This document shows positions 3,012 through 63,547 of a stretch of DNA of 64,000 nt, one piece after another. Position 1 is the stretch's first letter, and each line of letters opens with the position of its first letter. The position numbers and the translations under genes are program-made. The DNA is from a bacterium (GTDB taxonomy: Bacteria > Patescibacteriota > Minisyncoccia > JACQLN01). A model generated the notes under the pieces. The model searched no databases. It was not told where the DNA came from and was given only the letters and a program-made list of their open reading frames with translations. The stretch spans positions 21,722 to 85,721 of the forward strand of contig JAUYOV010000006.1 of the NCBI GenBank assembly GCA_030697795.1, given 5' to 3'.

Positions 3012-3028
3012 GGATAAAAATTAAAAAA

Positions 3029-3055
3029 GGACCGCCCTTCCTGGAAGGGCGGTCC
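3029..3055. terminator. family B palindrome acting as bidirectional terminator between convergent rplI and rpmA
   Basis: ggaccgcccttcc-t-ggaagggcggtcc, flanked by aaaaaa and tttt. Confidence 0.7.
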
Positions 3056-3066
3056 TTTTGTCTTCG

Positions 3067-3339: not shown

Positions 3340-3550
3340 ATTTTTCTAAATTTATTCTAAATTTAGCTAAAAATATGAGCATCCCTCCGAAGCTCTGAAA
3401 GAGCGAAGGGGGACAGCCATATTCATAACTATCTGATTCGCAAAATTTATGCAGGACACTGTCCAAAATCGTCCCAACATTCTAACAAACCTTTCCCTTT
3501 CTCGTCAACAGTCACAAAATTATGCTATAGCATAAAAAGCTGACTATTAT

Positions 3551-3602
3551 ATACCTTTAGTACACCGAGCATACGATCGTATGCTCGGTGTACTAAAGGT
3601 AT
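3551..3602. repeat. family A palindromic element, copy A1 (perfect 52-bp palindrome, core GAGCATACGATCGTATGCTC)
   Basis: atacctttagtacaccGAGCATACGATCGTATGCTCggtgtactaaaggtat. Intergenic. Confidence 0.85.
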
Positions 3603-3773
3603 ACCCCTCGACTTCCCTCAATTTGACTCGGGACAAGGTCGCTCAAGGTAATCCCTCGTCGCTCTGCCCCCTCGGGATATTTTTCGCCCTTATTTTTATA
3701 TTATATTGTTTGCGAAAAACAAAACCCGCAAGGTTTGACCTTGAACGGGTTACCCGGAATACTCCGGAAGTGC

Positions 3774-4058
3774 TTACGCTCTATATCGTTTACTTTCACG
3801 ATAGACATTGCCGAGGGCAGTCATAAATTCCGAGCTACGCAAATTCTCTGCCAGCGCGGCACGCTTCTTTGAAGGAACGTCGCCGAGAAACTCATCAACA
3901 TGGGCGAGGACGTCATGCCTGTCGACTGGTTCACCCCGGTTCGCACGGTCTGCAAACTCCATTAAAACATCCGCTGTGGTCAGAGGGCGACCCAGCCGCT
4001 CTTTGAGATCTACGAGCATCTGTCTAGCCATTGATTCATTACTCTTTTGGTCTGACAT
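3774..4058 (-). CDS. hypothetical protein; local GC about 55% versus about 36% background
   Basis: Strong SD (aaggaggtaacagt-ATG on minus strand). Compositionally foreign. No recognisable domain. Confidence 0.45.
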   Translation of the reverse strand: MSDQKSNESMARQMLVDLKERLGRPLTTADVLMEFADRANRGEPVDRHDVLAHVDEFLGDVPSKKRAALAENLRSSEFMTALGNVYRESKRYRA

Positions 4059-4152
4059 ACTGTTACCTCCTTATTTTGGGGAAAGAACTATATATTTAGT
4101 CTAGAACAAGATTTACAATAAGTAAAGAAAGGTCATATTTTGAATTCAATAA

Positions 4153-6871: not shown

Positions 6872-8773
6872 TTATACTTGAATCAATACTGGCAAAATCA
6901 TTGGCCGGCGGTGAGTTTTTTGGAATAAGAATTGGCCCAAGCGTTCTTTTATTTCTTCCTTTATAAGCGCATCGTTAAAGGGGTGTTCGCTGGCCGTAGC
7001 GCCTTCCACAACTTTTCTAATAATCATTCTAGCGTCTAACAACATTTGTTTGTTGTCGCGCAAATAAATAAATCCACGGGAAATAATATCTGGGCTACCA
7101 CGCACTCGGCCACTTTTTGAATCTACCACAGCTACCACCATAAACATGCCATCTTCGGCTAGCATTTGTCTGTCGCGAAGTACTACTGAACCGACATCAC
7201 CAACACCCAAACCGTCTACCATAACCATCTCGGCCGGCACCGATTTTTTATCTACAGAAATTTGATCGGCAGTTACTCTAACCACATTGCCATTTTCTAC
7301 TACAACTATGTTTTCTTCTGGCATACCAAAACGTAGCCCAAGATCTTTCATCGCAAATAACATTGAAAGTTGGCCGTGGACAGGCATTAAGAATTTTGGC
7401 CTAACCAATTCCAACATATACATTAAATCGTCCTGTTGGCCGTGTCCGCCGGCGTGAATATCTAGCATTTTGTAGTTGTAAACTTTTACGCCGTGCCTAA
7501 GTAAATTATCTTTTAAATGCTGAATAGTGCGTTCATTGCCGGGAATAATAGAGGAAGAAAATATAATAGTATCTCCCTTTTTAAGTTCCAGTTGTTTGTG
7601 GCGGTGGGTGGCTAAACGCATCAAAACGGCGTTTTCTTCGCCTTGGCCGCCGGTACCCAAAACAGTAATTTTGCTGTCTGGGTATTTATTGCTTTCGGAA
7701 GCAGAAATTAAAGTACCTTTTTTAGTTTTGATGTAGCCCAAAACTTTAGAAACTTCTACCGCAGCTTTCATGCTAAAGCCTTCCACCACCACTTTACGAT
7801 TATATTTTTCGGAAATAGCAATAATTTGTTGGACGCGGTTAATGGCCGATGCAAACATACCCACAATAATTCGGCCCGGCGCTTCTTTAATTAATTTTTC
7901 TAAGTTGTCTTGAATATCGGATTCAGAAATAGAATGGCCCGGTTCTTCGGCGCCCGTACTGTCGCTCATAACCAAAAGCAAACCATCGTCGCCAATCTTT
8001 TTTAAGCGATCGATCTCGGCGGGTTTATCTATAACAGGATTATGGTCAAATTTAAAATCCGAAGTGCACATTATATTGCCCACTGGAGTTTTAATAAGCA
8101 AAGCCATATCGTCGGGAATACTGTGGTTGATGTGGATAAATTCAACTTCAAACACGCCAATTTTTCTTTTATCACCGCTTCTTATTTCGTCTATCATTAA
8201 CTTGGGCAGTTGTTTAAATTCTTCGTGGCGTTTTATAACCAAACCCTTGGTTAACGGCGCGGCATAGATCATTGGATTCTCTAGGCGTTCTAGCATATAA
8301 GGCAAAGCGCCAATGTGATCAAAGTGGCCGTGTGTAAAAATAAGACCGCTTATTTTATCTGTTTTATCTTCCAAATATTTTATATTAGGAATTAAAAGAT
8401 CTATACCCGGCATATCTTCCTCGGGAAATCTTACGCCAGCATCAATCAGCAAAATATCGCGATCGTCTTTATCGTAATCACGCCATTCTATCACCGTCAT
8501 ATTTCGGCCAACTTCGCCTAAGCCTCCTAACGGGATAATTCTTAAACAGTTTTTCTGCGGAGTTTTTGCCTGTTGTTCTGCGTTTTCTTCGTTGTTTCTT
8601 GGCATGAAGTTTGCCCTTGGGGTTCTTGGCCCACGAAAACTGTCTCCATCTTGGCTTGAGGATGATCTGAAAAATAGTTTACCTGAATTTGATGGTCGGC
8701 CACTGTGCCTGTTACCTTGTCTATTATTTTGTCTGTTACCACTATGTGGTCTGTATGGTTGATTCATAGTCAA
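6872..8773 (-). CDS. rnj: ribonuclease J (metallo-beta-lactamase / beta-CASP)
   Basis: IIPLGGLGEVGRNM and HGHFDHIGALPY. About 75-aa Arg/Asn/Ser-rich disordered N-terminal extension. Confidence 0.85.
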   Translation of the reverse strand: MTMNQPYRPHSGNRQNNRQGNRHSGRPSNSGKLFFRSSSSQDGDSFRGPRTPRANFMPRNNEENAEQQAKTPQKNCLRIIPLGGLGEVGRNMTVIEWRDYDKDDRDILLIDAGVRFPEEDMPGIDLLIPNIKYLEDKTDKISGLIFTHGHFDHIGALPYMLERLENPMIYAAPLTKGLVIKRHEEFKQLPKLMIDEIRSGDKRKIGVFEVEFIHINHSIPDDMALLIKTPVGNIMCTSDFKFDHNPVIDKPAEIDRLKKIGDDGLLLVMSDSTGAEEPGHSISESDIQDNLEKLIKEAPGRIIVGMFASAINRVQQIIAISEKYNRKVVVEGFSMKAAVEVSKVLGYIKTKKGTLISASESNKYPDSKITVLGTGGQGEENAVLMRLATHRHKQLELKKGDTIIFSSSIIPGNERTIQHLKDNLLRHGVKVYNYKMLDIHAGGHGQQDDLMYMLELVRPKFLMPVHGQLSMLFAMKDLGLRFGMPEENIVVVENGNVVRVTADQISVDKKSVPAEMVMVDGLGVGDVGSVVLRDRQMLAEDGMFMVVAVVDSKSGRVRGSPDIISRGFIYLRDNKQMLLDARMIIRKVVEGATASEHPFNDALIKEEIKERLGQFLFQKTHRRPMILPVLIQV

Positions 8774-8876
8774 ATATTAAATTACTAATTTCTAATATCC
8801 AATTTCTAATAAAAACCTAAATGTCTAAATGATTTAATCTTAATTAGACTTTTAAGCATTAGATATTTTATTAGTG

Positions 8877-13261: not shown

Positions 13262-13302
13262 CGAATCAGTTACGGCAAGTTCTTAAACAAAGGAGGCTCA
13301 AG

Positions 13303-13515
13303 ATGGTACATTTAAGACTTACACATGCGTGTGAAAGTGGTGATCACGAGATGTGTTCAGGTGGTGAGGGATCTCCCGATACTTTTGGAGGTTGGAAATG
13401 CACCTGTCATTGTCATCACAAAAATGTTCCTTATGAAGAAACGATGAGTGCTAAGATAGCCGCACACCAATTTAGAGATGTTAAGCACTGGAATTTTAAT
13501 AGAAAACCTTCATAA
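13303..13515 (+). CDS. small Cys/His-rich protein (70 aa), putative metal-binding
   Basis: Strong SD aaaggagg plus 6 nt plus ATG. Sequence ...THACESGDHEMCSGG...GGWKCTCHCHHKN... . Flanked by two hairpin terminators. Confidence 0.5.
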   Translation: MVHLRLTHACESGDHEMCSGGEGSPDTFGGWKCTCHCHHKNVPYEETMSAKIAAHQFRDVKHWNFNRKPS

Positions 13516-13961: not shown

Positions 13962-16916
13962 ATGTCTAGCCAAGATTACATCAAAATCCGCGGGGCGAGG
14001 GTGCATAATTTAAAAAATGTTAGTTTAGACATTCCCAAAAACAAGTTGGTGGTTATTACCGGCCTTTCGGGTTCGGGCAAGTCGTCGCTGGCGTTTGATA
14101 CGCTGTATGCTGAAGGGCAAAGAAGATATGTAGAAAGTTTGTCGGCTTATGCTCGGCAATTTTTAGGCATTATGGATAAGCCCGATGTGGATTCCATAGA
14201 TGGCTTGTCGCCGTCAATATCCATAGACCAAAAAAGCGTATCAAAAAATCCGCGCTCTACTGTTGGTACTATTACCGAAATTTATGATTACCTGCGTTTG
14301 TTGTTTGCTAGAGTCGGCAAACCTCATTGCCCCAAGTGTGATCGCGTAGTTTCGCGCCAAAGTCCAACGCAAATAACAGATAAAATTTTAAAATTTAAAA
14401 AAGGCACGGCTTTAGTAATTTTGGCGCCAATCATTCGCGATCAAAAAGGTGAACACAAAGCAGTTATTATGAAGTTATCAAATTCCGGCTATGCCAGAGT
14501 TAGAGTTAACGGTGAAATTTTAAAAGTTGAAGAAGCTTTAAAATTAAATTTAGAAAGATACAAGCGCCATTCAGTAGAAGCTGTGATAGACAGAGTGACC
14601 CTAGAAAGTGATCCCTCCTCCTTCGCCCCCACTTCGCCAAGGCTACGAGGGGCAAGCAGGGCTTCGGAGGACAAGGATCTTCGTGCTCGCATTGCGGAAT
14701 CCATAGAACAAGCTCTTAAATTAGGTGACGGTTTGATGATTGTCCAACACCTGGTGTTGGACAAGTATTCAAAAAAGGACCGCCCTTCCAGGAAGGGCGG
14801 TCCTTCCGAGGAGCTGTTTTCCGAAGCGATGTCGTGCGCTTATTGTGGTATAAATTTTCCAAATGTTGAACCAAGATCATTTTCTTTTAATAGCCCGCAC
14901 GGCGCTTGCCCGCATTGCACAGGTTTAGGTAATACCAAAGAAATTGATCCAGATTTAGTTTTTCCAAGCAAGCATATAACTTTGGCGGAAGGCGCCATTA
15001 AGCCGTGGGCTTCGGCTTCGCACCGCGTCGGCTACCAAGGTTGGTATTGGAGTATTGTGGAAGAAATTTCGCAAAAATACAGTTTTTCAGTTTCGGTGCC
15101 TGTAAAAGATTTACCGCAAAAATTTATAAACATTATTTTATATGGTGACAAAGATCGCGATGGCGATTTTGAGGGAGTTATTCCAAATTTATTGCGCCGT
15201 TACCGCGAAACCGAATCAGAATTTACCAGAGCCGAGATAGAACGCTATATGATAGATAAGGTTTGTCCGGTATGTAAGGGCGCACGTTTAAAGCCAGAAG
15301 TTTTAGCGGTTAAGTTTTTAGGAAAAAATATTAGCTATGTGGCAGATTTATCTATAAATGAATGCAAAAAGTTTTTTTCGGAGATTAAAGGTGGCCCTGC
15401 TTCGCTAAAGCTACGCAGGGTAAACTTAACCCAATCGGAGCTTCAAATAACTTTGCCAGTAGTTAAAGAAATTTTAAACAGATTAGATTTTTTGCTAAAT
15501 GTCGGGCTAGATTATTTAACACTTTCTCGTTCTTCGGCTACGCTTTCTGGTGGTGAAGCTCAACGTATTCGTTTAGCTACACAAATTGGTTCTGGTTTAA
15601 CAGGGGTTCTATATATACTAGACGAACCTTCTATTGGTTTGCATCAGCGCGATCAAAATAGGTTAATTAAAACGCTTAAACATTTACGCGACATCGGCAA
15701 CACTGTAGTGGTGGTGGAACATGATGAGCAGACTATCAATAATGCCGATTGGGTGATAGATGTAGGGCCGGGCGCGGGTAAACACGGCGGTAAAATAGTT
15801 TTTGAAGGAACGCCTCAACAGCTCAAAAAATCAGATAGCATTACAGGGCAGTATTTGTCTGGAAGGAAGAAAGTAGAAGGTGGAAAATTGAAAACGGAAA
15901 AGAAAAATTTATCTTCTACTTTCCATAATCTACCTTCTATTGTTATCAAAGGCGCACAGGAAAATAATCTCAAAAACATTACAGTCAAAATTCCCTTGGG
16001 ACAGTTTGTAGCAATCACGGGCGTTTCGGGTTCGGGTAAGTCTAGTTTGGTAAACGATATTTTGGCTAAATTTTTATTGCAAAAATTTTATAATGCTAAA
16101 GAATCTCCCGGAAAATTTACAGAAATAACTGGTTGGGAAAATTTAGATAAAGTTGTGGTGGTAGACCAAAGCCCGATAGGCCGAACACCGCGTTCTAACC
16201 CAGCCACATATACCGGAATGTTTAGTGTTATTCGCGATTTATTTGCCGCCACGCGCGAAGCAAAAGTTAGAGGTTTCGGGCCAGGCCGGTTTAGTTTTAA
16301 TGTAAAAGGCGGCAGATGCGAAGTGTGCGAAGGGCAGGGGGTAAGAAAAATTGAAATGCATTTTTTGCCCGATGTTTATGTGGAGTGCGAAGAATGCCAT
16401 GGCACGCGCTATAACAAAGAAGCGCTAGAGGTGGAATACAAAGGCAAAAATATTGCTCAAGTTTTAAAAATGCCGGTGGAAGACGCTTTTGAATTTTTTA
16501 AAAATATTCCCTCGTTAAAACAAAAAATTGGAACATTGCTGGAAGTCGGTTTAGGTTATATGGAATTAGGCCAGCCGGCTACCACATTGTCTGGCGGGGA
16601 GGCTCAAAGAATAAAACTTGCCACAGAATTATCGCGGCGCGATACGGGCAAAACTTTATATAGTTTGGATGAACCAACCACGGGTTTGCATTTTGAGGAT
16701 ATAAATAAACTGCTTAGGGTTTTGCATTTGCTGGTTGAAAAAGGCAATACGGTTTTAGTTATTGAACATAATTTGGATGTTATTAGAACGGCGCATCATA
16801 TTATAGACTTAGGTCCAGAAGGCGGTAATGGCGGAGGCAAAATTGTAGCGGTGGGCACTCCGCAGCAAATCAGCCAAACTAAAAATAGTTACACTGGACA
16901 GTTTCTGCGTAAGTGA
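13962..16916 (+). CDS. uvrA: excinuclease ABC subunit A
   Basis: Two ABC ATPase modules ([23 protein letters not shown]; [13 protein letters not shown]), Zn-finger Cys clusters, LSGGEAQR signatures. 984 aa because of three in-frame palindromic-element insertions. Confidence 0.95.
14777..14803. repeat. family B palindrome, copy B2, in-frame inside uvrA (encodes [12 protein letters not shown])
   Basis: aaaaaa-ggaccgcccttcc-a-ggaagggcggtcc. Same flank as terminator copy B1. Confidence 0.85.
15395..15420. repeat. family C hairpin, copy C2, in-frame inside uvrA (encodes [10 protein letters not shown])
   Basis: ccctgc-ttcgctaaagctac-gcaggg. Stem fully compensated relative to C1 and C3. Confidence 0.8.
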
Positions 16917-16918
16917 TC

Positions 16919-16953
16919 GGAAGGACCGCCCTTCCAGGAAGGGCGGTCCTTCC
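16919..16953. repeat. family B palindrome, copy B3, immediately after the uvrA stop (35-bp near-perfect palindrome)
   Basis: ggaaggaccgcccttcc-a-ggaagggcggtccttcc. Marks the left edge of a GC-rich island. Confidence 0.85.
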
Positions 16954-17047
16954 TGTACTCAATATTGACATTATTGGCAAATATTTGCTATGTTTTATGA
17001 GTTCTTTTTTAACTAATTTCCCAAAACCCTTTATAATGGGAGGAACT

Positions 17048-18106
17048 ATGAAACTCGGATTTTACAGCTTTGACGTAGCTCCAGGAAACAACATAGCTAT
17101 ACTGGCGGCCGAAGCCAGAAGAAGGGGGCATGAGGTAGTTGATCCCGAGAAACAAAAGCCGGTTAGTGATAGAGCCATGGTTGAACTCATGACTTGCGAT
17201 ATGGTTGTAACAGGGCTTTCGTCTTTTAAAACGGAAATGGAGCTCGATGTTGCGCGTTATTTGAAAAATGAGACCAAGTGGGTTGTGTTGGAAGACGTGC
17301 CAGAATCTTGTCTGCGGCCAAAGGCGCGTGATTTTGCCAACAGGGCAGATTTACTTTTGATGGCTCCTCATACCAAACCGGAAGATGCTGCACGTTTTGG
17401 TTTTAGGAGAAATATCTGCTTGGGTCCGCCTCCGCTCTGGGGCAAGGAATACAACGAACTGATAGCGGCTAAAGAAGCTAATGTCCGACAGAATATGGAG
17501 AAGGTTGTTATGGGTGGCAACCCCATACAGCTTCAGACTAGTGATGTCGTGGTCGGCTTGGTGGGTGGAAAAGATTCACCAATAAACGATCTAGTTCTTG
17601 GGATGCTCATTCAGGCGTTAGCTGGTCATCATAAAGCCGTTGTTGGTTTTAGCCAACATCCTGGTGAGAAGGCTACAAAACCAGAAGATGAAGAGCGTTT
17701 TACGCGCGCTTTTCAAGAGCGGGCTGAAATGTTGAGCCGAATTTGGCATCTTTCTAAAAACTGGAAAGGTGTTGAAGTTGGGGCTGTAGCAGATGTGATG
17801 ATTTACGCCGGTGGCACCAACGCCAGTATTTCGGGCGCCTATGCTAGGATTCCTGGTATCTATCTAGATCTTCCGGAAGTTCGGGCAAGAATGGTAACAC
17901 AAAGCGGTAAAGAAACATGGTTTGTGGCTGAACTTGGTGGAGCGCTTGTTGTGGACAACAAGGAAGATCTTGGCCCGATGATCAAAACTGCATTGAGCAA
18001 TGAAGGGAGACAGTATCTGCTTGATATGCAAGAGAAAAATTTTCCATTGCCTGAAGATTGGCATACGGAAAAGAAGATCATCGATTATTTGGAGTGTTTA
18101 GTTTAG
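17048..18106 (+). CDS. hypothetical protein (about 352 aa), GC about 48-50%, compositionally foreign
   Basis: Long ORF. Start chosen at MKLGFYSF with a GGAGG upstream. The ORF 16913.. N-terminal extension overlaps the palindrome and is unlikely. Confidence 0.5.
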   Translation: MKLGFYSFDVAPGNNIAILAAEARRRGHEVVDPEKQKPVSDRAMVELMTCDMVVTGLSSFKTEMELDVARYLKNETKWVVLEDVPESCLRPKARDFANRADLLLMAPHTKPEDAARFGFRRNICLGPPPLWGKEYNELIAAKEANVRQNMEKVVMGGNPIQLQTSDVVVGLVGGKDSPINDLVLGMLIQALAGHHKAVVGFSQHPGEKATKPEDEERFTRAFQERAEMLSRIWHLSKNWKGVEVGAVADVMIYAGGTNASISGAYARIPGIYLDLPEVRARMVTQSGKETWFVAELGGALVVDNKEDLGPMIKTALSNEGRQYLLDMQEKNFPLPEDWHTEKKIIDYLECLV

Positions 18107-18131
18107 GAAATTAGTGTATCCGCTCCGACCT

Positions 18132-18158
18132 CGTGTCGGAGCATTTTTAATTTTAGTT
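18132..18158 (+). terminator. rho-independent terminator (copy 1 of a duplicated terminator)
   Basis: gctccgac-ctcgtg-tcggagc + ttttt. A near-identical copy lies at 18817. Confidence 0.7.
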
Positions 18159-18318
18159 GTCCAAATGGCATAGTCAGCAATTTATGCGATCACATAAATT
18201 GCTGACCGGTGCTAATTATTGCAAGAAACTATACGACGCAAAATTTGGGTTGTCTTACTGGGGTTGACCCCGTTAGAGATCGCGCGGGCTCGTAGCGACC
18301 CCCCATCTCTAATTGGGG

Positions 18319-18346
18319 TTGACACCTTCTTGTATATACGTATAAT
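18319..18346 (+). promoter_or_regulatory. consensus sigma70-type promoter (TTGACA-16nt-TATAAT)
   Basis: Seen directly. Preceded by direct repeats ctggggttgac and an inverted repeat tagagat/atctcta. Confidence 0.55.
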
Positions 18347-18349
18347 GAA

Positions 18350-18846
18350 ATAGTTCACTAAAATAACACAGGTAGAGGTAATGGCGGGTCGCTTCAAGCG
18401 AACCTCACTAAAGGCGGGGCAGGGAACTCCCCTCCAGAGTACCAAACCCCGCTTGTAAGCCAAACAGGATTCCATATCGGGCTATGTCCGGTTTGGAATG
18501 TCCTCCCTCCCCACGATTCTCGTGAGTTGGGCGTGGTCCGATACCTGTTTAGCTGAAAGGCTGGATGCGACCGCTAGGCATCCAGCCCGAAATTAAAACT
18601 CTGCAAGGGCAGAGGATGTAGTTCTTTATAATTTTGTTTGGCCAGAAAGGTCTCTTGAAAACGAGTAGAGCTTTGCCTCTCGACCTCGTATTCTTCCCGG
18701 ATCTTTCTGGCCTTGTATAGTCGAGGAACTTTTACGGTTCATCTTCTCCTGTTCGTCTTTCTTCCTTTCAACGGATTGGGGTTGATTGCCGTGCAGAGGG
18801 AAGTTCCTCGCACTCCCGCTCCGACCTTGCGTCGGAGCGGTTTTTT
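18350..18846 (+). ncRNA. candidate structured non-coding RNA (about 500 nt), class unknown
   Basis: GC-rich (about 52%) segment with no convincing ORF, between a consensus promoter and a terminator. Multiple long-range complementary segments, e.g. ggccagaaag...ctttctggcc and ggctggatgc...gcatccagcc. Confidence 0.35.
18817..18846 (+). terminator. rho-independent terminator (copy 2)
   Basis: ccgctccgac-cttgc-gtcggagcgg + tttttt. Confidence 0.7.
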
Positions 18847-18911
18847 AATTCCCTACAGGAATCCCGCACAAAGTGCGGAGAGGAGATCATTTAATCTAGA
18901 TAGTTCAAATT

Positions 18912-18949
18912 ACGTGTCCTGAGCATACGATCGTATGCTCAGGACACGT
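18912..18949. repeat. family A palindromic element, copy A2
   Basis: acgtgtcctGAGCATACGATCGTATGCTCaggacacgt, a perfect 38-bp palindrome. Same core as A1 with different compensated arms. Confidence 0.85.
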
Positions 18950-19143
18950 TTCAGAATTTATATACATATTAAAAAATCACTAGAAAAATTTAGAAAACCA
19001 AAAGAGCTTGACCCTAGTTCTAACATTTGCTACATTATCAATCGTAATAGAAGAGTGATAAAATCATTTAGATAATAGAGCATAGAAGGTGGAAAGTAGC
19101 TTTAAATCTATCTTCTAAAATCTACTTTCTAAATTTCAAACAT

Positions 19144-19434: not shown

Positions 19435-19484
19435 GTTCCAAAATTGCGAAATTTCTAATATCTAATTACTAATTTCTAAAAAAT

Positions 19485-21137
19485 ATGGCAAAGCAAATAT
19501 TATTTAACGAAAATGCTAGAACCGCCATGAGGCGGGGCATAGACAAGCTGGCCGAAGCTGTAAAAATGACGCTGGGTCCGCGTGGCCGCGCGGTGGTTAT
19601 AGAAAAAAGTTACGGCGCGCCTCAAGTAACTTTTGATGGCGTTACGGTAGCTAAAGAAATTGAACTTGCCGATAAATACGAAAACTTGGGCGCGGAGTTT
19701 GTAAAACAAGCCGCCGACAAAACCAATACCAACGTGGGTGATGGCACCACTACGGCGGTGGTTTTGGCTCAAGCTATGATCAAAGCCGGCGAAGAATCTA
19801 TCAGCAAGGGCGGGTTTAATGTTATTCAATTGGCCAACGAACTTAAAGAAGTTTCTAACGCAGTTATAAAAACTTTAGAAAGTCAGCGCGAACTCATTAA
19901 CGATAACAAAAAAATCCAAGAAGTAGCCACGCTTTCGGCCAAAGACACCAACATTGGCAAACTTATCGCCGAAGTGGTAAAAGAAGTTGGTAAAGACGGT
20001 GTAATTTCGGTGGAAGATGCCAACACCGTGGGCAGTTCTTACGAAGTGGTGGAAGGCATGCAGTTTGACCGAGGTTACATTTCGCATTATATGGTAACCA
20101 ACGCCGAAAAAATGGAAGCAGTTTATGAAAACCCTTTAATACTTATTACCGACAAAAAAATATCTGCCTTAACCGATTTTTTGCCGTTTCTAGAAAAATT
20201 AGCCAAAGCCGGCAAAAAGAATTTAGTGATTATTGCGGAAGACGTAGAAGGCGAGTCTTTGGCTACGTTAATAGTCAACAAAATTCGGGGCACGTTTAAT
20301 GCTCTCGCCATTAAAGCTCCGGGTTTTGGCGACAGACGCAAAGATATGCTAGAGGATTTAGCTATTTTAACCGGGGGCGAAGTTGTGACCGAAGAAAAAG
20401 GTTTGCGCTTGGACGCCATAGAAATAGATGTTTTGGGACAAGCCAAAAAAGTTATTTGTGCTAAGGAAAACACAACCATTATTGGCGGCGCGGGTAAAAA
20501 AATAGAAATAGAAAAAAGAATTAAGCAAATAAAATCGCAAATAGAAAAAAGCACTTCCAATTTTGACAAAGAAAAACTAGAAGAAAGATTAGGCAAGCTT
20601 GCTGGCGGAGTGGCTATTATAAAAGTGGGCGCGCCCACCGAATCGGCTCAAAAAGAATTAAAACAGCGGGTGGAAGATGCGGTGGCGGCCACCAAAGCGG
20701 CTATGGAAGAAGGTATTGTGCCTGGGGGTGGTATGGCCTTCTTTAATATAGTTTTTAAAAAGGATGTCAAAAATAAAAGTGAATTACCCGTAGCTTTAGC
20801 TGCGGCCAAAATAATGTTTAAAGCTTTAAGATCGCCGGTGGAGGCTATTATAGAAAACAGCGGTGAATCTATAGATGAAGTTATAGCGGAATTAATGCAA
20901 GCTAAGAAAGCACCGAATTCCAGTTGGCTTGGTTTTAACGCTTTAACCAATAAAATTGAAAACCTAAAAGATTATGGCATTGCGGATCCCTTAAAAGTTA
21001 CTAAAACGGCTTTTATAAATGCCGTATCAGTCGCTAGCAACTATTTAACCGTGGGCGCGGCTATAACCGAAATTCCAGAAAAAAATCCGCCAGCAGGCGG
21101 AGCCTCTATGCCGCATGGGGGAATGGAAGACTATTAA
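19485..21137 (+). CDS. groEL: chaperonin GroEL
   Basis: [35 protein letters not shown]... . 550 aa with a Gly/Met C-terminus. Confidence 0.95.
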
Positions 21138-21272
21138 ACAAACTCTAAGCACTAAATACTAAATTCTAAACAAATCTCAAATCTTAATTTTCCAAAAAGT
21201 TTAAAATTTGTGATTTAAATATTGTTTAGGATTTAGATATTAGAATTTAGAGTTTACTGATATAATAAACAC

Positions 21273-21868: not shown

Positions 21869-21898
21869 TTGACAGAGCTTTATATAGTATGCTATCAT
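21869..21898 (+). promoter_or_regulatory. sigma70-like promoter for the diversified ORF (TTGACA-18nt-TATCAT)
   Basis: Seen directly. An AAGGAG SD lies 8 nt upstream of ATG 21982. Confidence 0.45.
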
Positions 21899-21981
21899 TA
21901 TAACAGCATAAATAATGCTGTTCTTTTCCATAAACCCGCGACAGGTCTTAGAGGACAAGTCGCAGAAAAGGAGAACAAGTC

Positions 21982-22575
21982 ATGGCTCATGACAGGTTCA
22001 CATTCAATAGCGCCGGCCAGACTCATGAACTGGAGATGGCGATGGATCGGGCTGGTGGGTACAATGCCGCGATAGTAAAGCGGATGTGCAAAGGTGATCG
22101 ACTCACGCACATTCGGGAATATCTTCTTGGCTTGGCCGAGATTACATATCCCGAGCACATCATCAACTGCAGTGCCGACCCGTTCGTGCCTGAAGGCTGG
22201 AGCGTGGAAGAGCATCAGAAGAGCGGTTCTTTCAAATGGAGTCCCGCCGAGGTGCAGTTCTACCTCTCCGAGCTTCAGAAGCAAGACAAGGTTATCAAGG
22301 GAGATGAGCTTCGCCATGAATTGGCAGGTAAGCCGGTTTACAACGCGAACGTTCTTGATTATCTGCTGGCTCACCCTCATTTGATTCCCGAAGCGTGGAA
22401 AAAAGATGAGCAGGGACGCACCCAATACATCTTTTTCTGGGGAACCATTTACCGCGGCCGGGGCGGCGGCCTCTATGTGCGTTGCCTTTGTTGGGGCGGC
22501 TGCGGGTGGGGCTGGGGCTGCGGCTGGCTGGGCGGCGGCTTCCGCGGCGGCGGCCCCGTGGCTCTGCGCGCATAG
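21982..22575 (+). CDS. putative DGR variable (target) protein; C-terminal Gly/Cys/Trp-rich variable region ending ...GFRGGGPVALRA
   Basis: GC about 58% ORF with own promoter and RBS. Its last about 40 codons equal the VR copy of a TR/VR repeat pair (see findings). Confidence 0.6.
   Translation: MAHDRFTFNSAGQTHELEMAMDRAGGYNAAIVKRMCKGDRLTHIREYLLGLAEITYPEHIINCSADPFVPEGWSVEEHQKSGSFKWSPAEVQFYLSELQKQDKVIKGDELRHELAGKPVYNANVLDYLLAHPHLIPEAWKKDEQGRTQYIFFWGTIYRGRGGGLYVRCLCWGGCGWGWGCGWLGGGFRGGGPVALRA
22451..22572 (+). repeat. variable repeat (VR), coding, 3' end of ORF 21982..22575
   Basis: 122 bp homologous to 22958..23079. Differs only where the other copy has A. GC-rich 3' end, then hairpin 22640-22672. 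Confidence 0.75.
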
Positions 22576-22957
22576 TACTTTGACCCTTGGAATCTTGGGC
22601 TTTTCTTTAGCCCTTGATCCCTTGGGTCTTTTTAATTTAACCCAGTCAGAAGTAAAACTTCTGACTGGGTTTTGTAAAAAATCTAAAATGAATTAAGATT
22701 AACTCGGATACTAGGCGAATCTGCCGGCGGTTACGGCTTCCGGCGGCCGAATTCCGAGGCAAGCTATGCCAGAGTGGGAACGGCCACGGCTTTTCCCAGC
22801 GTGCTAACTTGATCTCTAAAAAACAAAGATACTTGGTGTAGGGTGCTGGTGGATTAGTTTCGCTTTGGCGAACGAGATCCCAAATAAAATACAGCCTTGA
22901 GATCGGTTTGTTTTATAACCTTCTAGGGGCAGTGGTATGGATGGCATCCTATACGCA

Positions 22958-23079
22958 ACCGCGACCGGAACGGCAACCTCTATGTGCGTTACCTTTATTG
23001 GAACGACTACGAGTGGAACTGGAACTACAACTGGCTAGACAACGACTTCAACGACAACAACCCCGTGGCTCTGCGCGCA
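22958..23079 (+). repeat. template repeat (TR)-like copy, non-coding, AAC/GAC/TAC-rich
   Basis: The frame is closed by a stop at 22924 and has no start. Adenines here correspond to G (once C) in the VR. Followed by hairpin ctccccaa...ttaggggag plus a T-run. Confidence 0.75.
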
Positions 23080-23273
23080 ACTATTTTTATTTCTCCCCAA
23101 TTATTTAGGGGAGTTTTATTTTTTTAAATATGATTGTTCAAGATGGTAAAGAACAGTCACTAATTTATGCTATAGCATTTTTTGATGACTATCATAGAGA
23201 TAGAAACAGCGTGACATCCGATGTCATTCAGCGGTGTTTATTATTTTACCCTTTATGTATATACTTTCTTTGT

Positions 23274-37616: not shown

Positions 37617-38909
37617 CTATATTTTGTCAATAGCTAGTTTTATTCTTCTTACAGACTCTTTTTTACCCAGTACATCTAAAATTTCAAAAGGGCTTGGAGA
37701 TTTGGCGAGTCCGGAGAGCGCTACTCTTAAAGGCCACAATAGGTCGCCTCGGCCGATGTCGTTGGCTTTAGGCATAAGTTCGGTGGTGGTGGTGTCTATA
37801 TCGAACGAATTTTCGGGCATATTTTCTAATATAGCTAAAACTGTCTCTAAATTTTCTTTAGTTTTTTCTTTTGGCGATTCTTTCCAGTTTAATAAGTCTG
37901 TTTCATAAACTGGTAAAGCAAATATAAAACCTGCCAGTTCTTTTATTTCGGAAAATATATTCAATCTATCTCTAAATAAGTGAGCTACTTTTATAAGCTG
38001 GGCCTCGTTTGGGTCATACATATCTAAATACGGTGCTATAAATTTAGCAATTTCCGCCGGCACCATATTTTTTATATAGTGATTATTTATAGAATCTAGT
38101 TTTTTATTATCAAAAACAGCACCTGATATTTGGACTCTAGAAATATCGAATTCTTTTATTAAATCGTCTAAGTTAAATATCTCTCTATTGTCTTTGGGAT
38201 GCCAGCCAATTAAAGCTAAAAAGTTAAGCATTGCCTCTGGCAAATAGCCTAGCTTAGTAAACTCGTTTACAGAAACAGCGCCGTGACGTTTGGAAAGCTT
38301 AGAACGATCAGTCGCCAATATTAAAGGTAGGTGGGCATACCTAGGCCTTTTAAACTCAAGCGCTTCAATTAGCTCAACTTGTTTATGGGTATTTGATGTG
38401 TGGTCTTGTCCCCTAATAACATCGGTAATATCCATTTCATGGTCGTCAACAACAACAGCAAAATTATAAGCAGGATTGCCATCGGATTTTATAAGCACTA
38501 TATTTTCTGGATCGCTGGATTTAAAGCCTATTGATGCTCTTAGAACTTCGTCTTTAAATATAATTTCTTTATATGCGGGTATCGTAAAAATTATAGCCAC
38601 ACCCTTTTCGCTTTCTACTTTTTGAGCTTTACCAGAGTTCACTAATTTATCTGCGTATTTTTTATATATTTCGATGCGTTCACTCTGCCTAACAATTCCC
38701 CCGTCCCAATTTAAACCCAGCCACTCTAGGCCGTTTGTAATATCTACTTCGTATTCGGGCTTGGATCTTGCTATGTCTGTATCTTCTATGCGCAATAAAA
38801 ATTCACCATGATTTTGTTTGGCGAATAAATAATTAAAAAGCGCGGTACGAGCCGTACCAACGTGCATATAGCCGGTGGGGCTGGGAGCAATACGGGTTTT
38901 CACTTTCAT
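37617..38909 (-). CDS. gltX: glutamate--tRNA ligase
   Basis: RIAPSPTGYMHVGTARTALFNYLFA (HIGH-class) and KLSKRHG (KMSKS). Confidence 0.9.
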   Translation of the reverse strand: MKVKTRIAPSPTGYMHVGTARTALFNYLFAKQNHGEFLLRIEDTDIARSKPEYEVDITNGLEWLGLNWDGGIVRQSERIEIYKKYADKLVNSGKAQKVESEKGVAIIFTIPAYKEIIFKDEVLRASIGFKSSDPENIVLIKSDGNPAYNFAVVVDDHEMDITDVIRGQDHTSNTHKQVELIEALEFKRPRYAHLPLILATDRSKLSKRHGAVSVNEFTKLGYLPEAMLNFLALIGWHPKDNREIFNLDDLIKEFDISRVQISGAVFDNKKLDSINNHYIKNMVPAEIAKFIAPYLDMYDPNEAQLIKVAHLFRDRLNIFSEIKELAGFIFALPVYETDLLNWKESPKEKTKENLETVLAILENMPENSFDIDTTTTELMPKANDIGRGDLLWPLRVALSGLAKSPSPFEILDVLGKKESVRRIKLAIDKI

Positions 38910-38993
38910 AAATTTCTAATGTCTAATATCTAATTTCTAATCAAACTATTAATATCTAATGACTAAGTTTAGAAATTAGTAATTAGAAATTGG

Positions 38994-40106
38994 TCATTTG
39001 GCCAAATCCAAAAGGATTTGTGCCAGCTGGCTGGCTGCATCTATTTTAGCAAATTTTTTGGCATTTTCACTCATTGAATCTAACTCCGAACTGTTATTTA
39101 ATATTTTTTCAATTACTTCCTTTAGCTTGTCCAGTTCATTTTCTTTTAAAACAACAGCAGCCCCAGTTTTGGCATAAGAAGACGCATTGACCGGTTGATC
39201 TCCGTTTTTTCTTTCTAAGGGAATTAAAATGCTTGGTTTACCAAAAGCCGCCAGTTCAAAAATTGTTCCAGCACCGGCTCGACCAATGGCAATGTCGCAT
39301 AATGTATAAGCAGAAGCCAACTCTTTTTCGTTTAAAAATGGTACGATCTTTAAATTATTGTCCAACACCAGGTGTTGGACAGATTGATAATTAGCCGCGC
39401 CCACGCTCCAAATCATATTAAAATTTTCTAATAGATCAGGCAGTATTTTAAAAATAGCTTTATTTATTCTCTGTGCGCCTTGCGATCCCCCGCTAATAAA
39501 TATCGTACACCGAGCATACGATCGTAAGCTCGGTGTACTTTCCTTTGGTGGAAAATCAAGAATTTTTTCGGCTTCTTCTTTGGTTAAATCCAGATACTTT
39601 AATCTGACCGGATTACCTACTACCTGAATATTTTTGCCCGCGAAAAAATTCTTAGTTTCTTCAAAAGATACGACAATATTATTGGTTACATAAGAAAGGA
39701 ATTTATTAGCAAGCCCCGGTATTGCGTCGGACTCATGTATGATTATTTTCTTAAATAAAATTTCGGCAGCTAATACAGGTAAAACACTACCATAACTGCC
39801 CTTGCCCAAAACCACATCTGGATTTATCGAAACTACTATTATTAAAGATTGAAAAAATGCAAAAGGAATTTTAATAATTTCCCAAATATGTTTAAACGAA
39901 AAATATCGCCTTATTTTACCGGCGGCGATTATGGTTTTAACAATTACGCTTTCTTCTCGCAAGGCGTTTAGCGAAAATTCTTCTGGACCAACAAAATATA
40001 TTTTTGCCTCTGGCGCTAGTTTTTTGATGGCTCTAGCTACGGCTACCAAGGGTAAAACATGCCCACCAGTTCCCCCACCACAGAGCATTATCTTAGGGTT
40101 TTTCAT
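38994..40106 (-). CDS. murG: undecaprenyldiphospho-muramoylpentapeptide beta-N-acetylglucosaminyltransferase MurG
   Basis: MLCGGGTGGHVLPLVAVA, the ..ISGGSQGA.. G-loop. Carries an in-frame family A palindrome. Confidence 0.85.
   Translation of the reverse strand: MKNPKIMLCGGGTGGHVLPLVAVARAIKKLAPEAKIYFVGPEEFSLNALREESVIVKTIIAAGKIRRYFSFKHIWEIIKIPFAFFQSLIIVVSINPDVVLGKGSYGSVLPVLAAEILFKKIIIHESDAIPGLANKFLSYVTNNIVVSFEETKNFFAGKNIQVVGNPVRLKYLDLTKEEAEKILDFPPKESTPSLRSYARCTIFISGGSQGAQRINKAIFKILPDLLENFNMIWSVGAANYQSVQHLVLDNNLKIVPFLNEKELASAYTLCDIAIGRAGAGTIFELAAFGKPSILIPLERKNGDQPVNASSYAKTGAAVVLKENELDKLKEVIEKILNNSSELDSMSENAKKFAKIDAASQLAQILLDLAK
39505..39538. repeat. family A palindromic element, copy A3, in-frame inside murG (encodes STPSLRSYARCT just before the GGS G-loop)
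   Basis: gtacaccGAGCATACGATCGTAaGCTCggtgtac, one mismatch. Arms identical to A1. Confidence 0.85.
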
Positions 40107-40885: not shown

Positions 40886-41007
40886 AACACCCTCCTCTCG
40901 AAGGTTTATTCCCTCTCGGGAATATGTGTCTCCTCTCGGAGACGGTTTATGTAAAGGAACTTATAGCGAAATACTAACCGATAATCATTAATTTCGTCAA
41001 GCACAAA

Positions 41008-41043
41008 CATACCGCGAGCATACGATCGTATGCTCGCGGTATG
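41008..41043. repeat. family A palindromic element, copy A4
   Basis: cataccgcGAGCATACGATCGTATGCTCgcggtatg, a perfect 36-bp palindrome. Confidence 0.85.
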
Positions 41044-41152
41044 CAGACAAAATAGATATAAATTTCTTTAATAATGCAATGGTCACTAAAAAATGCTATA
41101 GCATAAATTGTTGACCGTAGATATTTTGCCAGTTCCTTACTTTGAGTTACTA

Positions 41153-62766: not shown

Positions 62767-62785
62767 TAGGCTAAATTTTTAATTT

Positions 62786-63547
62786 CTAATTACTAATTTC
62801 TAAACTCGGATGATCGTGTTCCAAACCATGCGCGTGTTTATGAACCGAAGCGTGATGGCCAAAAATTTCCTGCAAGGTCTCGGGTGTTAAAGTTTCTTGA
62901 GGCGTACCTTGGCAAACCAAGTCTTTATTTAAACAAATAACTTTAGTGGCAAATCTATAAACGATGGAAAGTTCATGCGAAACCATAACCATAGTCATAT
63001 TCAATTTTTTATATAAATCGTAAAGCAGGTTATAAACAGTTTCTTCGGTGCTAATGTCTATGCCAGCGGCTGGTTCATCAAAGAAAATAAGTTTAGGATT
63101 TTCTAGTAAACTTCGGGCTATAAGCATTCTTTGCATTTCGCCTTGAGAAAGATCGCCTAGCCTTTCGTTTATTAAGTGGCCAATTTTAACATCGTCTAGT
63201 CTTTGTTTAATCTCGTTTTCTTTCTTTTTGTTGGGCAACCAAAAATTTAGATCATTGCCTGTTTCAAACAAGAAAAATTCTTTAACGGTTAAAGGAAAAC
63301 CTTTTTCAAAAGATATTTTTTGAGGCACATAACTGGTTTCGGGTTTTTTATGCCAAGTAATGTCGCCCGTATAATTTGAATCTAAACCCAAAATACTGCG
63401 CACCAACATGGTTTTACCGGCGCCATTGGGGCCAATAATAGCTAAAATATCACCCTCAACAATATCAAAGGTGACATTTTTTAGAATTTGCTTTTTACCA
63501 AAACCAAAACCTAAGTTTTTTACGCTTATTATTTTTTCGGCCATCAA
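62786..63547 (-). CDS. metal ABC transporter ATP-binding protein with His-rich C-terminal tail
   Basis: Walker A GPNGAGKT, signature LSQGEMQR, Walker B IFFDEP. C-terminal HHASVHKHAHGLEHDHP. Confidence 0.8.
   Translation of the reverse strand: MMAEKIISVKNLGFGFGKKQILKNVTFDIVEGDILAIIGPNGAGKTMLVRSILGLDSNYTGDITWHKKPETSYVPQKISFEKGFPLTVKEFFLFETGNDLNFWLPNKKKENEIKQRLDDVKIGHLINERLGDLSQGEMQRMLIARSLLENPKLIFFDEPAAGIDISTEETVYNLLYDLYKKLNMTMVMVSHELSIVYRFATKVICLNKDLVCQGTPQETLTPETLQEIFGHHASVHKHAHGLEHDHPSLEISN

Follow-up and report, generated by a model that had tools for sequence, protein, structure and literature searches.

Organization of the uvrA–groES interval

The stretch of DNA analysed here, called the window, is 64 kb long and has a mean GC content of 38.8%. 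Its span 16919-18949, between uvrA and groES, had been described in an initial annotation as a GC-rich island of acquired cargo bracketed by two palindromes. Two transcription units lie there on the same strand: a gene for a 352-residue protein predicted to adopt a GT-B fold and, downstream of it, what is very probably the gene of a large structured RNA (Table 1). No further open reading frame (ORF) of at least 100 amino acids is found inside the interval, whose neighbours are uvrA and groES. Much of the inventory given earlier was reproduced. The family B palindrome right behind uvrA and the family A palindrome ahead of the groES promoter are perfect (35 and 38 nt, respectively), the coordinates of the ORF are right, and about 0.7 kb without ORFs follows it. 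The two similar terminator hairpins are real and are the only ones of their kind in the 64 kb, the first lying about 12 nt away from the place assigned to it (18120-18148, not 18132-18158). A third palindrome, of another family, had been overlooked in the spacer between the two units (18169-18213).

A word-index search among 5.8 billion proteins yielded 20 homologues of the ORF; most are unlabelled, and the labels present read “bacterium”, “Patescibacteria group” or “Parcubacteria group”. Contigs of relatives were fetched as encoding homologues of the ORF or close GroES proteins, and are designated by L-numbers (L001, L002, L004 and so on). The window and its relatives represent a narrow lineage of Patescibacteria (Parcubacteria-type groundwater bacteria), a group of the candidate phyla radiation.

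Table 1. Features of the uvrA–groES interval and repeat copies elsewhere in the window (REP, repetitive extragenic palindrome; MITE, miniature inverted-repeat transposable element; CIRCE, controlling inverted repeat of chaperone expression)
Feature	Position	Strand	Description
Family B palindrome	16919-16953	.	GGAAGGACCGCCCTTCCAGGAAGGGCGGTCCTTCC; directly 3′ of the uvrA stop codon; REP/MITE-like; outside the conserved locus
Promoter and leader of the ORF	16965-17047	+	TTGACA-18-TATGTT; promoter-like site 16965-16994; transcript start region AGTTCTTT
Gene of predicted GT-B-fold protein	17048-18106	+	352 aa; uncharacterised family; very divergent, exchanged alleles in the slot
Intrinsic terminator of the ORF	18120-18148	+	CCGCTCCGACC-TCGTG-TCGGAGC and T-run; near-identical to the RNA terminator
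Third-family palindrome (D5)	18169-18213	.	Centre of TATGC-ATAGCATA type; in spacer; window-specific, missing from relatives’ aligned spacers
MITE-like inverted-repeat element	18264-18323	.	Arms CCCCGTTAGAGAT and ATCTCTAATTGGGG; flanked by TTGAC direct repeat
Putative RNA promoter	18319-18346	+	TTGACA-16 nt-TATAAT; 12/12 consensus positions
Putative structured non-coding RNA gene	18353-18847	+	~495 nt, GC 50.9%; relatives 456-474 nt; start inferred from promoter
Intrinsic terminator of the RNA	18816-18846	+	CCGCTCCGACC-TTGCG-TCGGAGCGG and TTTTTT; ~470 nt past the promoter
Family A palindrome	18912-18949	.	ACGTGTCCTGAGCATACGATCGTATGCTCAGGACACGT; window-specific insertion upstream of the groES promoter; not at this position in any relative
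groES promoter and CIRCE-like inverted repeat	19008-19061	+	TTGACC-17-TACATT; right border of the variable interval; part of groESL, not of the RNA
AT-rich repeat copies	1099-1130, 2429-2564, 8762-8810, 19446-19480, 21136-21256, 38907-38999, 62770-62804		

A probable structured RNA gene downstream of the GT-B gene

The ORF-free segment has the signals of a transcription unit of its own. The sequences TTGACAC and GTATAAT, which contain its promoter hexamers, are invariant in five long-form relatives, and 5 of the 11 stem pairs of its terminator show compensatory changes across relatives. Hairpins of the form GCTCCGACC-N5-TCGGAGC followed by a T-run number two in the window, against 0.02 expected. 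The unit aligns end to end with the corresponding gaps of the relatives (nhmmer E values of 1e-110 to 1e-134), and the spacers on either side of it are unalignable. Nothing points to translation: no ORF of at least 20 amino acids is common to the copies, the L004 copy having none on its sense strand, substitutions are spread evenly over the codon phases (p = 0.48-0.94), and many indels, with lengths of 1, 2, 4 or 5 nt, would shift a reading frame.

The stretch 18350-18850 has a minimum free energy (MFE) z-score of -6.3 relative to shuffled sequence. The predicted fold comprises a 5′ domain with a long-range helix (AAACAGG/CCUGUUU), a long hairpin carrying the C-rich segment CCUCCCC and a further hairpin (GGCUGGAUGC/GCAUCCAGCC), a middle part with a 13-bp hairpin (GGCCAGAAAGGUC/GAUCUUUCUGGCC), and a 3′ domain closed by GAGGAACUUUU/GGGAAGUUCCUC. 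The RNAalifold consensus of five lineages, 60-77% identical to one another, holds 119 pairs, 30 of them with compensatory double changes. Standard pairs occupy 92.1% of the sequence-by-pair cells; sliding the 3′ partners by 1-3 columns lowers this share to 37.6-48.3%. Covarying pairs number 30 in the consensus, 4-9 in the slid controls and 12.2 ± 2.6 after shuffling, and none of 500 shuffles reaches 30. The core helices reappear in an alignment of eight sequences, and a covariance model of the 5′ core recovers all long-form copies at 95-135 bits and no second copy in the window. Besides the promoter hexamers and the terminator, the invariant blocks are AAACAGGA, CCUCCCC, CGAAAUUAA, GUUCUUUAU, GAUCUU, UCCUUUC and CGUGCAGAGGRAAGU. 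Comparative sequence evidence of this kind makes it very probable, in our view, that 18353-18847 is the gene of a structured non-coding RNA of about 495 nt, which would be expressed and would act in trans.

Distribution of the RNA and search for known families

When Rfam 15 (4227 families) was run at gathering thresholds, only two tRNAs were reported in the window. With lax filters and E ≤ 10, the window copy, the set of relatives, the L004 copy and the short form of L012 (see below) gave only short chance matches to microRNA and small nucleolar RNA families, far below threshold. ARAGORN found three tRNAs and no transfer-messenger RNA (tmRNA) in the window, and the RNA contains no conserved short ORF. 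The RNA has no blastn match in the phage and plasmid collections, all 80 matches of a scan of IMG/VR with CGTGCAGAGGNAAGT were due to chance, and a genome-collection scan with the loose pattern CGAAATTAA-N(10-40)-GTTCTTT gave no true copy by nhmmer among the matches listed (at least 120 loci). A two-block 20-base pattern hit 18 loci in 241 million metagenome records, two of which are true copies, L138 (the same type as L006) and L145 (near L002). Like L002, L006 and L156, L145 stems from the Hainich groundwater transect. The full-text literature yielded no published description of such an RNA, and a survey of GC-rich intergenic regions in 50 genomes did not include these bacteria. The family looks rare. 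Judged by these searches, the RNA belongs to no described family and is a previously undescribed one among the large orphan bacterial RNAs.

Several specific identities were tried and set aside. Peptide coding, tmRNA, RNase P RNA, 6S RNA and signal recognition particle (SRP) RNA find no support in the Rfam, ARAGORN and ORF checks, nor does a CsrB-like identity with GGA loops, since on inspection L002 and L004 have not kept the GGA motifs.

At the same position a sister lineage (L012, L153/L154) has a structured RNA that is shorter, about 250 nt, with the same kind of promoter, the AGUUC start and one similar hairpin. We do not claim this short RNA (L012/L153) as a homologue of the long form: the 5′-core covariance model R1 gives no match on the correct strand, and the hairpin is matched by nhmmer at E = 0.008.

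A conserved but variable slot in related genomes

The interval is syntenic. At least eight related Patescibacteria contigs (L001/L002, L004/L005, L006/L007, L010, L156, L237 and L238) have uvrA, a homologue of the ORF, a gap of 0.7-0.9 kb and groES-groEL in the same order. The full order, found in at least five distinct lineages, is uvrC (on the opposite strand), uvrA, the ORF homologue, the gene-free gap, groES, groEL, LemA and an M48 peptidase. L012 has the same slot with a shorter gap of about 470 bp. At the right border, the CIRCE-like repeat of the groES promoter region (TTATCAATC-N9-GAGTGATAA, 19035-19061) is nearly invariant in all the relatives aligned (L002, L004, L006, L010 and L012); it resembles the CIRCE operator of HrcA, TTAGCACTC-N9-GAGTGCTAA, from which it differs symmetrically. 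The slot borders in the window showed no integrase, transposase or tRNA, and the closest tRNAs predicted by ARAGORN are 6-8 kb off, at 8876 and 24933.

These comparisons alter the picture of an acquired island. An empty site, with uvrA directly followed by groES, was seen in none of the long relatives examined, all of which carry an ORF homologue and an RNA. The relatives share the gene order without the window’s palindromes, so that delivery or delimitation of a cargo by these is not supported, and the ORF-poor segment regarded as part of that cargo appears instead to be a conserved non-coding RNA gene. Horizontal transfer survives as allele exchange by recombination among relatives, not as insertion of an island, the slot itself being conserved. 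The jump in GC content is likewise real relative to the window mean, at 46.6% over the flagged span rather than the 48-52% first estimated. It does not form one block bounded by palindromes: there are two GC-rich units, the ORF (46.4%) and the RNA, with AT-rich promoter and spacer segments (26-37%) between and around them. GC and GC at third codon positions (GC3) of the ORF are raised over its neighbours in every lineage. Across the 64 kb, 1.1% of 498-nt segments reach the GC content of the RNA, and 6.1% of 1059-nt segments that of the ORF. Raised GC is typical for stable RNA genes of AT-rich genomes and is the basis of screens of GC-rich intergenic regions (PMC8723152, PMC11109978). The GC content of the RNA segment fits this behaviour and is not explained by horizontal exchange.

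The GT-B gene

The product of the ORF, for which no function had been named at first, matches no Pfam or NCBIfam family at E ≤ 10 and has no sequence relative in the PDB. Its predicted structure has two Rossmann-like α/β domains with a cleft between them, which assigns it with high confidence, as far as the model goes, to the GT-B fold (glycosyltransferase / UDP-sugar 2-epimerase superfamily). The protein would be a transferase-like or epimerase-like enzyme, probably one that attaches sugars to a surface glycan or protein.

A Shine-Dalgarno sequence, GGGAGGA, is located at 17038-17044. All the relatives keep the promoter, the leader with GTTCTT and the GGAGG box, and most other genes sampled in the window are without a GGAGG/Shine-Dalgarno box. 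The terminator hairpin recurs in the same type 3′ of the ORF in L004, L006 and L237. The arrangement of promoter, (A)GTTCTT transcript start, (CC)AAAA, GGAGG and ATG is seen at 4056-4107 (-), 13279-13305 (+), 17001-17050 (+) and 40957-41000 (-); it stands in front of the GT-B gene and of two small hypothetical ones, with about 94 aa (4057-3775, minus strand) and about 70 aa (from 13303). In the window, TTGAC-N-TAnnnT-N-GTTC occurs three times, against 0.44 expected. The AGTTC start was rejected as a tie between ORF and RNA alone: the same promoter-plus-GTTC combination lies at 40957-41000 and the GTTCTT...GGAGG leader at two other small genes, which makes it a wider trait of this genome.

Distant homologues of the ORF are found elsewhere, with no RNA behind them. 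In L155 (1894-2627) the homologue is followed by the gene of ribosomal protein bL25, in L013 (1-6092) it comes after genes of a NeuC-like protein, a 2-hydroxyacid dehydrogenase and two NeuB proteins, and in L014 it comes before EF-G. Because the distant homologues stand in other contexts without the RNA, the pairing of RNA and ORF is limited to the uvrA–groES lineage.

Allele exchange and mosaic structure

The slot is far more variable than its surroundings. The GroEL proteins are 82-96% identical; the ORF proteins are 45-78% identical and group differently, incongruently with GroEL and LemA. At the DNA level the flanks (uvrA, groEL) are 80-95% identical, against 45-70% in the ORF. The GC content of the ORF exceeds that of uvrA and groEL by 5-10 points, and its GC3 by 6-19 points, in every lineage (including L002, L004, L006, L010 and L012). 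With so lasting an offset, and alleles saturated with change, one old transfer is insufficient as an explanation.

The comparison of L004 with L156 reveals a sharp boundary: their RNAs are 96% and their GroES proteins 99% identical, against 67% amino-acid identity in the ORF, and immediately upstream of the RNA promoter the DNA identity rises abruptly from 55-80% to 96-100%. The RNA itself is composite. L010 sides with L004/L156 over the 5′ half (86-95%) and with the window and L002 over the 3′ domain (74%, against 54-58% with the L004/L006 type), and the apex of the middle hairpin shows a third grouping. By these sequence groupings, we regard the RNA as a recombinant mosaic. The divergent interval, the incongruent trees, the L004/L156 breakpoint and the mosaic RNA together indicate that ORF alleles and RNA modules have been swapped by recombination among relatives; the GT-B alleles would be exchanged by homologous recombination inside the conserved slot.

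Of the bracketing repeats, only the terminator pair is common to the relatives (in most lineages). Concerted evolution of the two terminators was rejected, as their similarity within a genome is not above that between genomes and L156 departs from the pattern. Their resemblance probably goes back to an ancestor and may be what remains of an old duplication or insertion by which the RNA gene came to lie beside the ORF.

Palindromes and other repeats of the window

Family B (D9) has three copies in the window, at 3023-3057, at 14771-14805, within the coding sequence of uvrA, and behind uvrA at 16919-16953; the relatives are without it behind uvrA, where L006 has a different, CGATCG-centred palindrome. 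Family A (D3) has five copies with the core GAGCATACGATCGTATGCTC, and family D5 has four, at 3507, 18169, 23152 and 41078. Alignment with the relatives, including the sequences upstream of the ORF, identifies all three palindromes of the interval as spacer insertions specific to the window, and some relatives carry other palindromes in the same spacers. Because they are missing at the matching places in relatives, the window’s palindromes are not slot borders but independent, recent REP/MITE-like insertions. From the sequence comparison we take them to be repeats that landed in the spacers of this genome, unrelated to the content of the slot, and infer that they are mobile.

The family B copy inside uvrA is in frame and encodes about 14 residues, at a place where the identity of uvrA to that of the relatives falls to 51-55%; it is apparently a repeat tolerated in a variable linker of an essential repair protein. 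Copies of families A and D5 are adjacent at 3497-3603 and 41000-41122. One copy of each also flanks the RNA gene, about 700 bp apart, and nothing beyond a common preference for spacers was found in this arrangement.

The right-hand TTGAC copy of the MITE-like element upstream of the RNA is the -35 box of the RNA promoter. The arms of this element show compensatory changes in L004 (GGC/GCC) and L006 (GAC/GTC), L010 has a longer version, and L002 lacks the element and has a single TTGAC.

Many short spacers of the window are taken up by members of an AT-rich repeat family (TTTCTAATTACTAATTTCTAAA and its complement), often right before start codons, for example that of groEL. The GC-richest stretch of the window (53-58%) is 21870-23100, which separates LemA from the M48 peptidase. 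Its contents are a direct repeat of 122 nt (22451-22572 / 22958-23079) and an ORF of 197 aa (21982-22575), which has a tail rich in Gly, Trp and Cys and matches nothing in Pfam. LemA and the M48 peptidase are immediately adjacent in L004 and L006, and this stretch is a better candidate for a true window-specific insertion than the flagged region.

Alternative explanations

We consider it likely, with good confidence, that the flagged 2 kb are a native, syntenic and hypervariable uvrA–groESL slot with two independent transcription units, the GT-B gene and an undescribed structured RNA, to which the palindromes are unrelated. An acquired island, consisting of the ORF and non-coding filler delivered or delimited by palindromes of families A and B, would account for a GC content over the window mean, for palindromes at both ends, for direct-repeat terminators around the ORF-free part and for an ORF with raised GC3 and an incongruent tree. 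It is nevertheless very improbable, as the relatives have the ORF, the RNA and the gene order without these palindromes, integrase, transposase and tRNA are missing from the borders, the palindrome families are scattered over the spacers of the window with one copy inside uvrA, the rise in GC is not bounded by palindromes, and the ORF-free part behaves as a constrained RNA gene. Hardly credible is the idea that this part once coded for a protein and has decayed, or that it acts as DNA (through clustered binding sites, for instance), its structure being a by-product of GC content. The modest identity of 60-77% between lineages fits such an origin, as does the reverse strand, which folds similarly well (z = -6.55), but there is no common ORF, the codon phases are flat, indels break the frame, 30 double-sided compensatory pairs far exceed the slid and shuffled controls, and the conserved promoter and terminator are oriented for the plus strand.

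If the segment is an RNA, it could in principle act in cis, as a 3′ untranslated region or processing product of the GT-B mRNA, or as a leader or regulatory region of groESL. It lies between both genes on the same strand in every genome, the 5′ end of the RNA (AGUUC) and an internal block (AGUUCUUUAU) resemble the leader of the ORF (AGUUCUUU), and, the two flanking hairpins being alike, read-through could form alternative pairings. This too we judge unlikely, given that a terminator with a T-run closes the ORF unit, that the RNA has its own conserved promoter and terminator, and that a separate conserved groES promoter with the CIRCE-like operator follows 160-300 nt downstream, the spacers on both sides being unconstrained. 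Nor is the RNA tied to a given ORF allele, because in L004/L156 it was inherited with groES while the ORF was swapped. A highly divergent housekeeping RNA (RNase P RNA, tmRNA, 6S/Ms1-like RNA or SRP RNA) missed by the standard models is improbable, although size, strong promoter, high GC content and conserved structure are typical of such RNAs; none of them lies elsewhere in the 64-kb window, which is expected for so short a stretch and is no proof of a genome-wide lack. Nothing above chance emerged from the 4227 Rfam models at E ≤ 10 with the window, L004 and L012 copies, and ARAGORN found no tmRNA. The RNA is also without the P4 strands of RNase P (GAGGAAAGUCC / ACAGAAnCCGGCUUA in the proper 5′/3′ positions), a tRNA-like end and the 6S shape of a rod with a central bubble, which we take as hallmarks of these RNAs and count against a housekeeping identity. 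A recombining mosaic, with a replacement of about 250 nt in a sister lineage, would moreover be unexpected for a housekeeping RNA.

Possible function of the RNA

Transcription would start at the sigma-70-type consensus promoter and end at the intrinsic terminator, and the multi-helix fold of the product would be kept by compensatory substitutions. That the RNA is a trans-acting regulatory or scaffold RNA is a tentative proposal, to which we give a rather low probability: its conserved pyrimidine-rich segments would pair with purine-rich Shine-Dalgarno-type sites or bind protein. The segments in question are CCUCCCC (one or two copies), for which partition-function folds give an unpaired probability of 0.46-0.99, and UCCUUUC (ACCUCCUUUCU in some lineages), which resembles the 3′ end of 16S rRNA. 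The RNA could equally well be a ribozyme or the core of a ribonucleoprotein. It is unlikely that the RNA is a new class of large modular RNA functionally coupled to the GT-B enzyme, the two forming one diversity cassette in episymbiotic Patescibacteria. What the RNA and the GT-B gene have in common is the variable slot, similar terminators, the AGUUC transcript start, a leader-like block and mosaicism. In such a cassette the RNA might control or guide the transferase or be its substrate, and its swappable modules might co-vary with the type of surface glycan or with phage or host pressure.

Several observations count against this reading of the RNA. The covariation, drawn from just five to six independent lineages, has limited power; the five- and eight-sequence consensus folds disagree on several small helices and on the one that closes the 5′ domain; and the 5′ end is placed by the promoter alone. 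The identity between lineages (60-77%) is below that of the flanking coding DNA, so that the constraint on primary sequence is modest. In the L004/L006 type, pairing is predicted for UCCUUUC. When each RNA was paired with its own ORF leader by RNAduplex, the energies were within about 1-2.5 standard deviations of those of shuffled leaders, and any C-rich segment pairs with any Shine-Dalgarno sequence. The L012/L153 lineage has just the RNA of about 250 nt at the site, outside the reach of the long-form model. The RNA may also be a lineage-specific, dispensable element, since only two true copies were found in metagenomes.

Only a small number of bacterial RNAs combine a length above about 300 nt with a conserved, complex fold; most of those solved are ribozymes or unusual ribonucleoprotein cores, and self-assembly is frequent among large ornate RNAs. 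The genomes of Patescibacteria are tiny (about 1 Mb), with little spare DNA. Given such genomes, a consensus promoter and one locus kept across lineages, a 0.5-kb RNA gene probably matters to these largely uncultured symbionts. It is unusual for an RNA gene that alternative domain variants are reshuffled among close relatives, here beside a glycosyltransferase-like gene that behaves like a locus of surface variation. A link between the RNA and the GT-B gene, should there be one, would make the pair a variable cassette of a new kind; without it, the RNA would remain a new family that is clean and amenable to testing. For annotation, the practical lesson is to look for RNA genes in GC-rich “islands” of AT-rich genomes before turning to horizontal transfer as the explanation.

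Comparison with known systems

The RNA resembles OLE, ROOL, GOLLD, the raiA-motif RNA, HEARO and the candidates of GC-rich screens (PMC8723152, PMC11109978) in being long (~0.5 kb), with many helices and conserved junction nucleotides, and in occupying a GC-rich, ORF-free intergenic stretch of an AT-rich genome with its own promoter and terminator. It differs from these orphan RNAs in being known so far from one narrow lineage of Patescibacteria, in a hypervariable slot and as a mosaic of module variants; OLE, ROOL, GOLLD, raiA and HEARO are all in Rfam, and none is matched by it at E ≤ 10. We know of no description of recombinant module mosaicism for these five classes.

With RNAIII of S. aureus and small RNAs of the RsaE/RoxS type, in which C-rich loops mask ribosome-binding sites, the analogy is functional only. 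The RNA is about as long as RNAIII (~0.5 kb), its pyrimidine-rich segments are partly unpaired in the predicted folds, and it adjoins a gene with a Shine-Dalgarno sequence, a rare leader type here; there is no homology and no encoded peptide, and no specific conserved target pairing emerged from the leader comparison.

The window’s palindromes are comparable to REP/BIME (bacterial interspersed mosaic element) and MITE-like repeats: they are short (35-45 nt), perfect or near-perfect, belong to several families with 3-5 copies each per 64 kb, lie mostly in spacers and at gene ends, and vary in presence at orthologous sites of close relatives. Their sequences are unrelated to the REPs of enterobacteria, and one copy is in frame within uvrA.

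Compared with GT-B enzymes such as GT4-type BshA and PimA, MurG, the UDP-GlcNAc 2-epimerases and NeuC, the ORF protein is just 9-16% identical, and the invariant motifs of its family (EDVP, GPPP, HPGE and WFV) are unlike their signatures. The slot as a whole resembles hypervariable loci of the O-antigen or capsule type in its flanks with 80-95% DNA identity, its divergent content of atypical GC, its incongruent tree and the sharp breakpoint at its edge. It differs from them in holding a single glycosyltransferase-like gene rather than a pathway, together with an RNA gene whose modules are shuffled.

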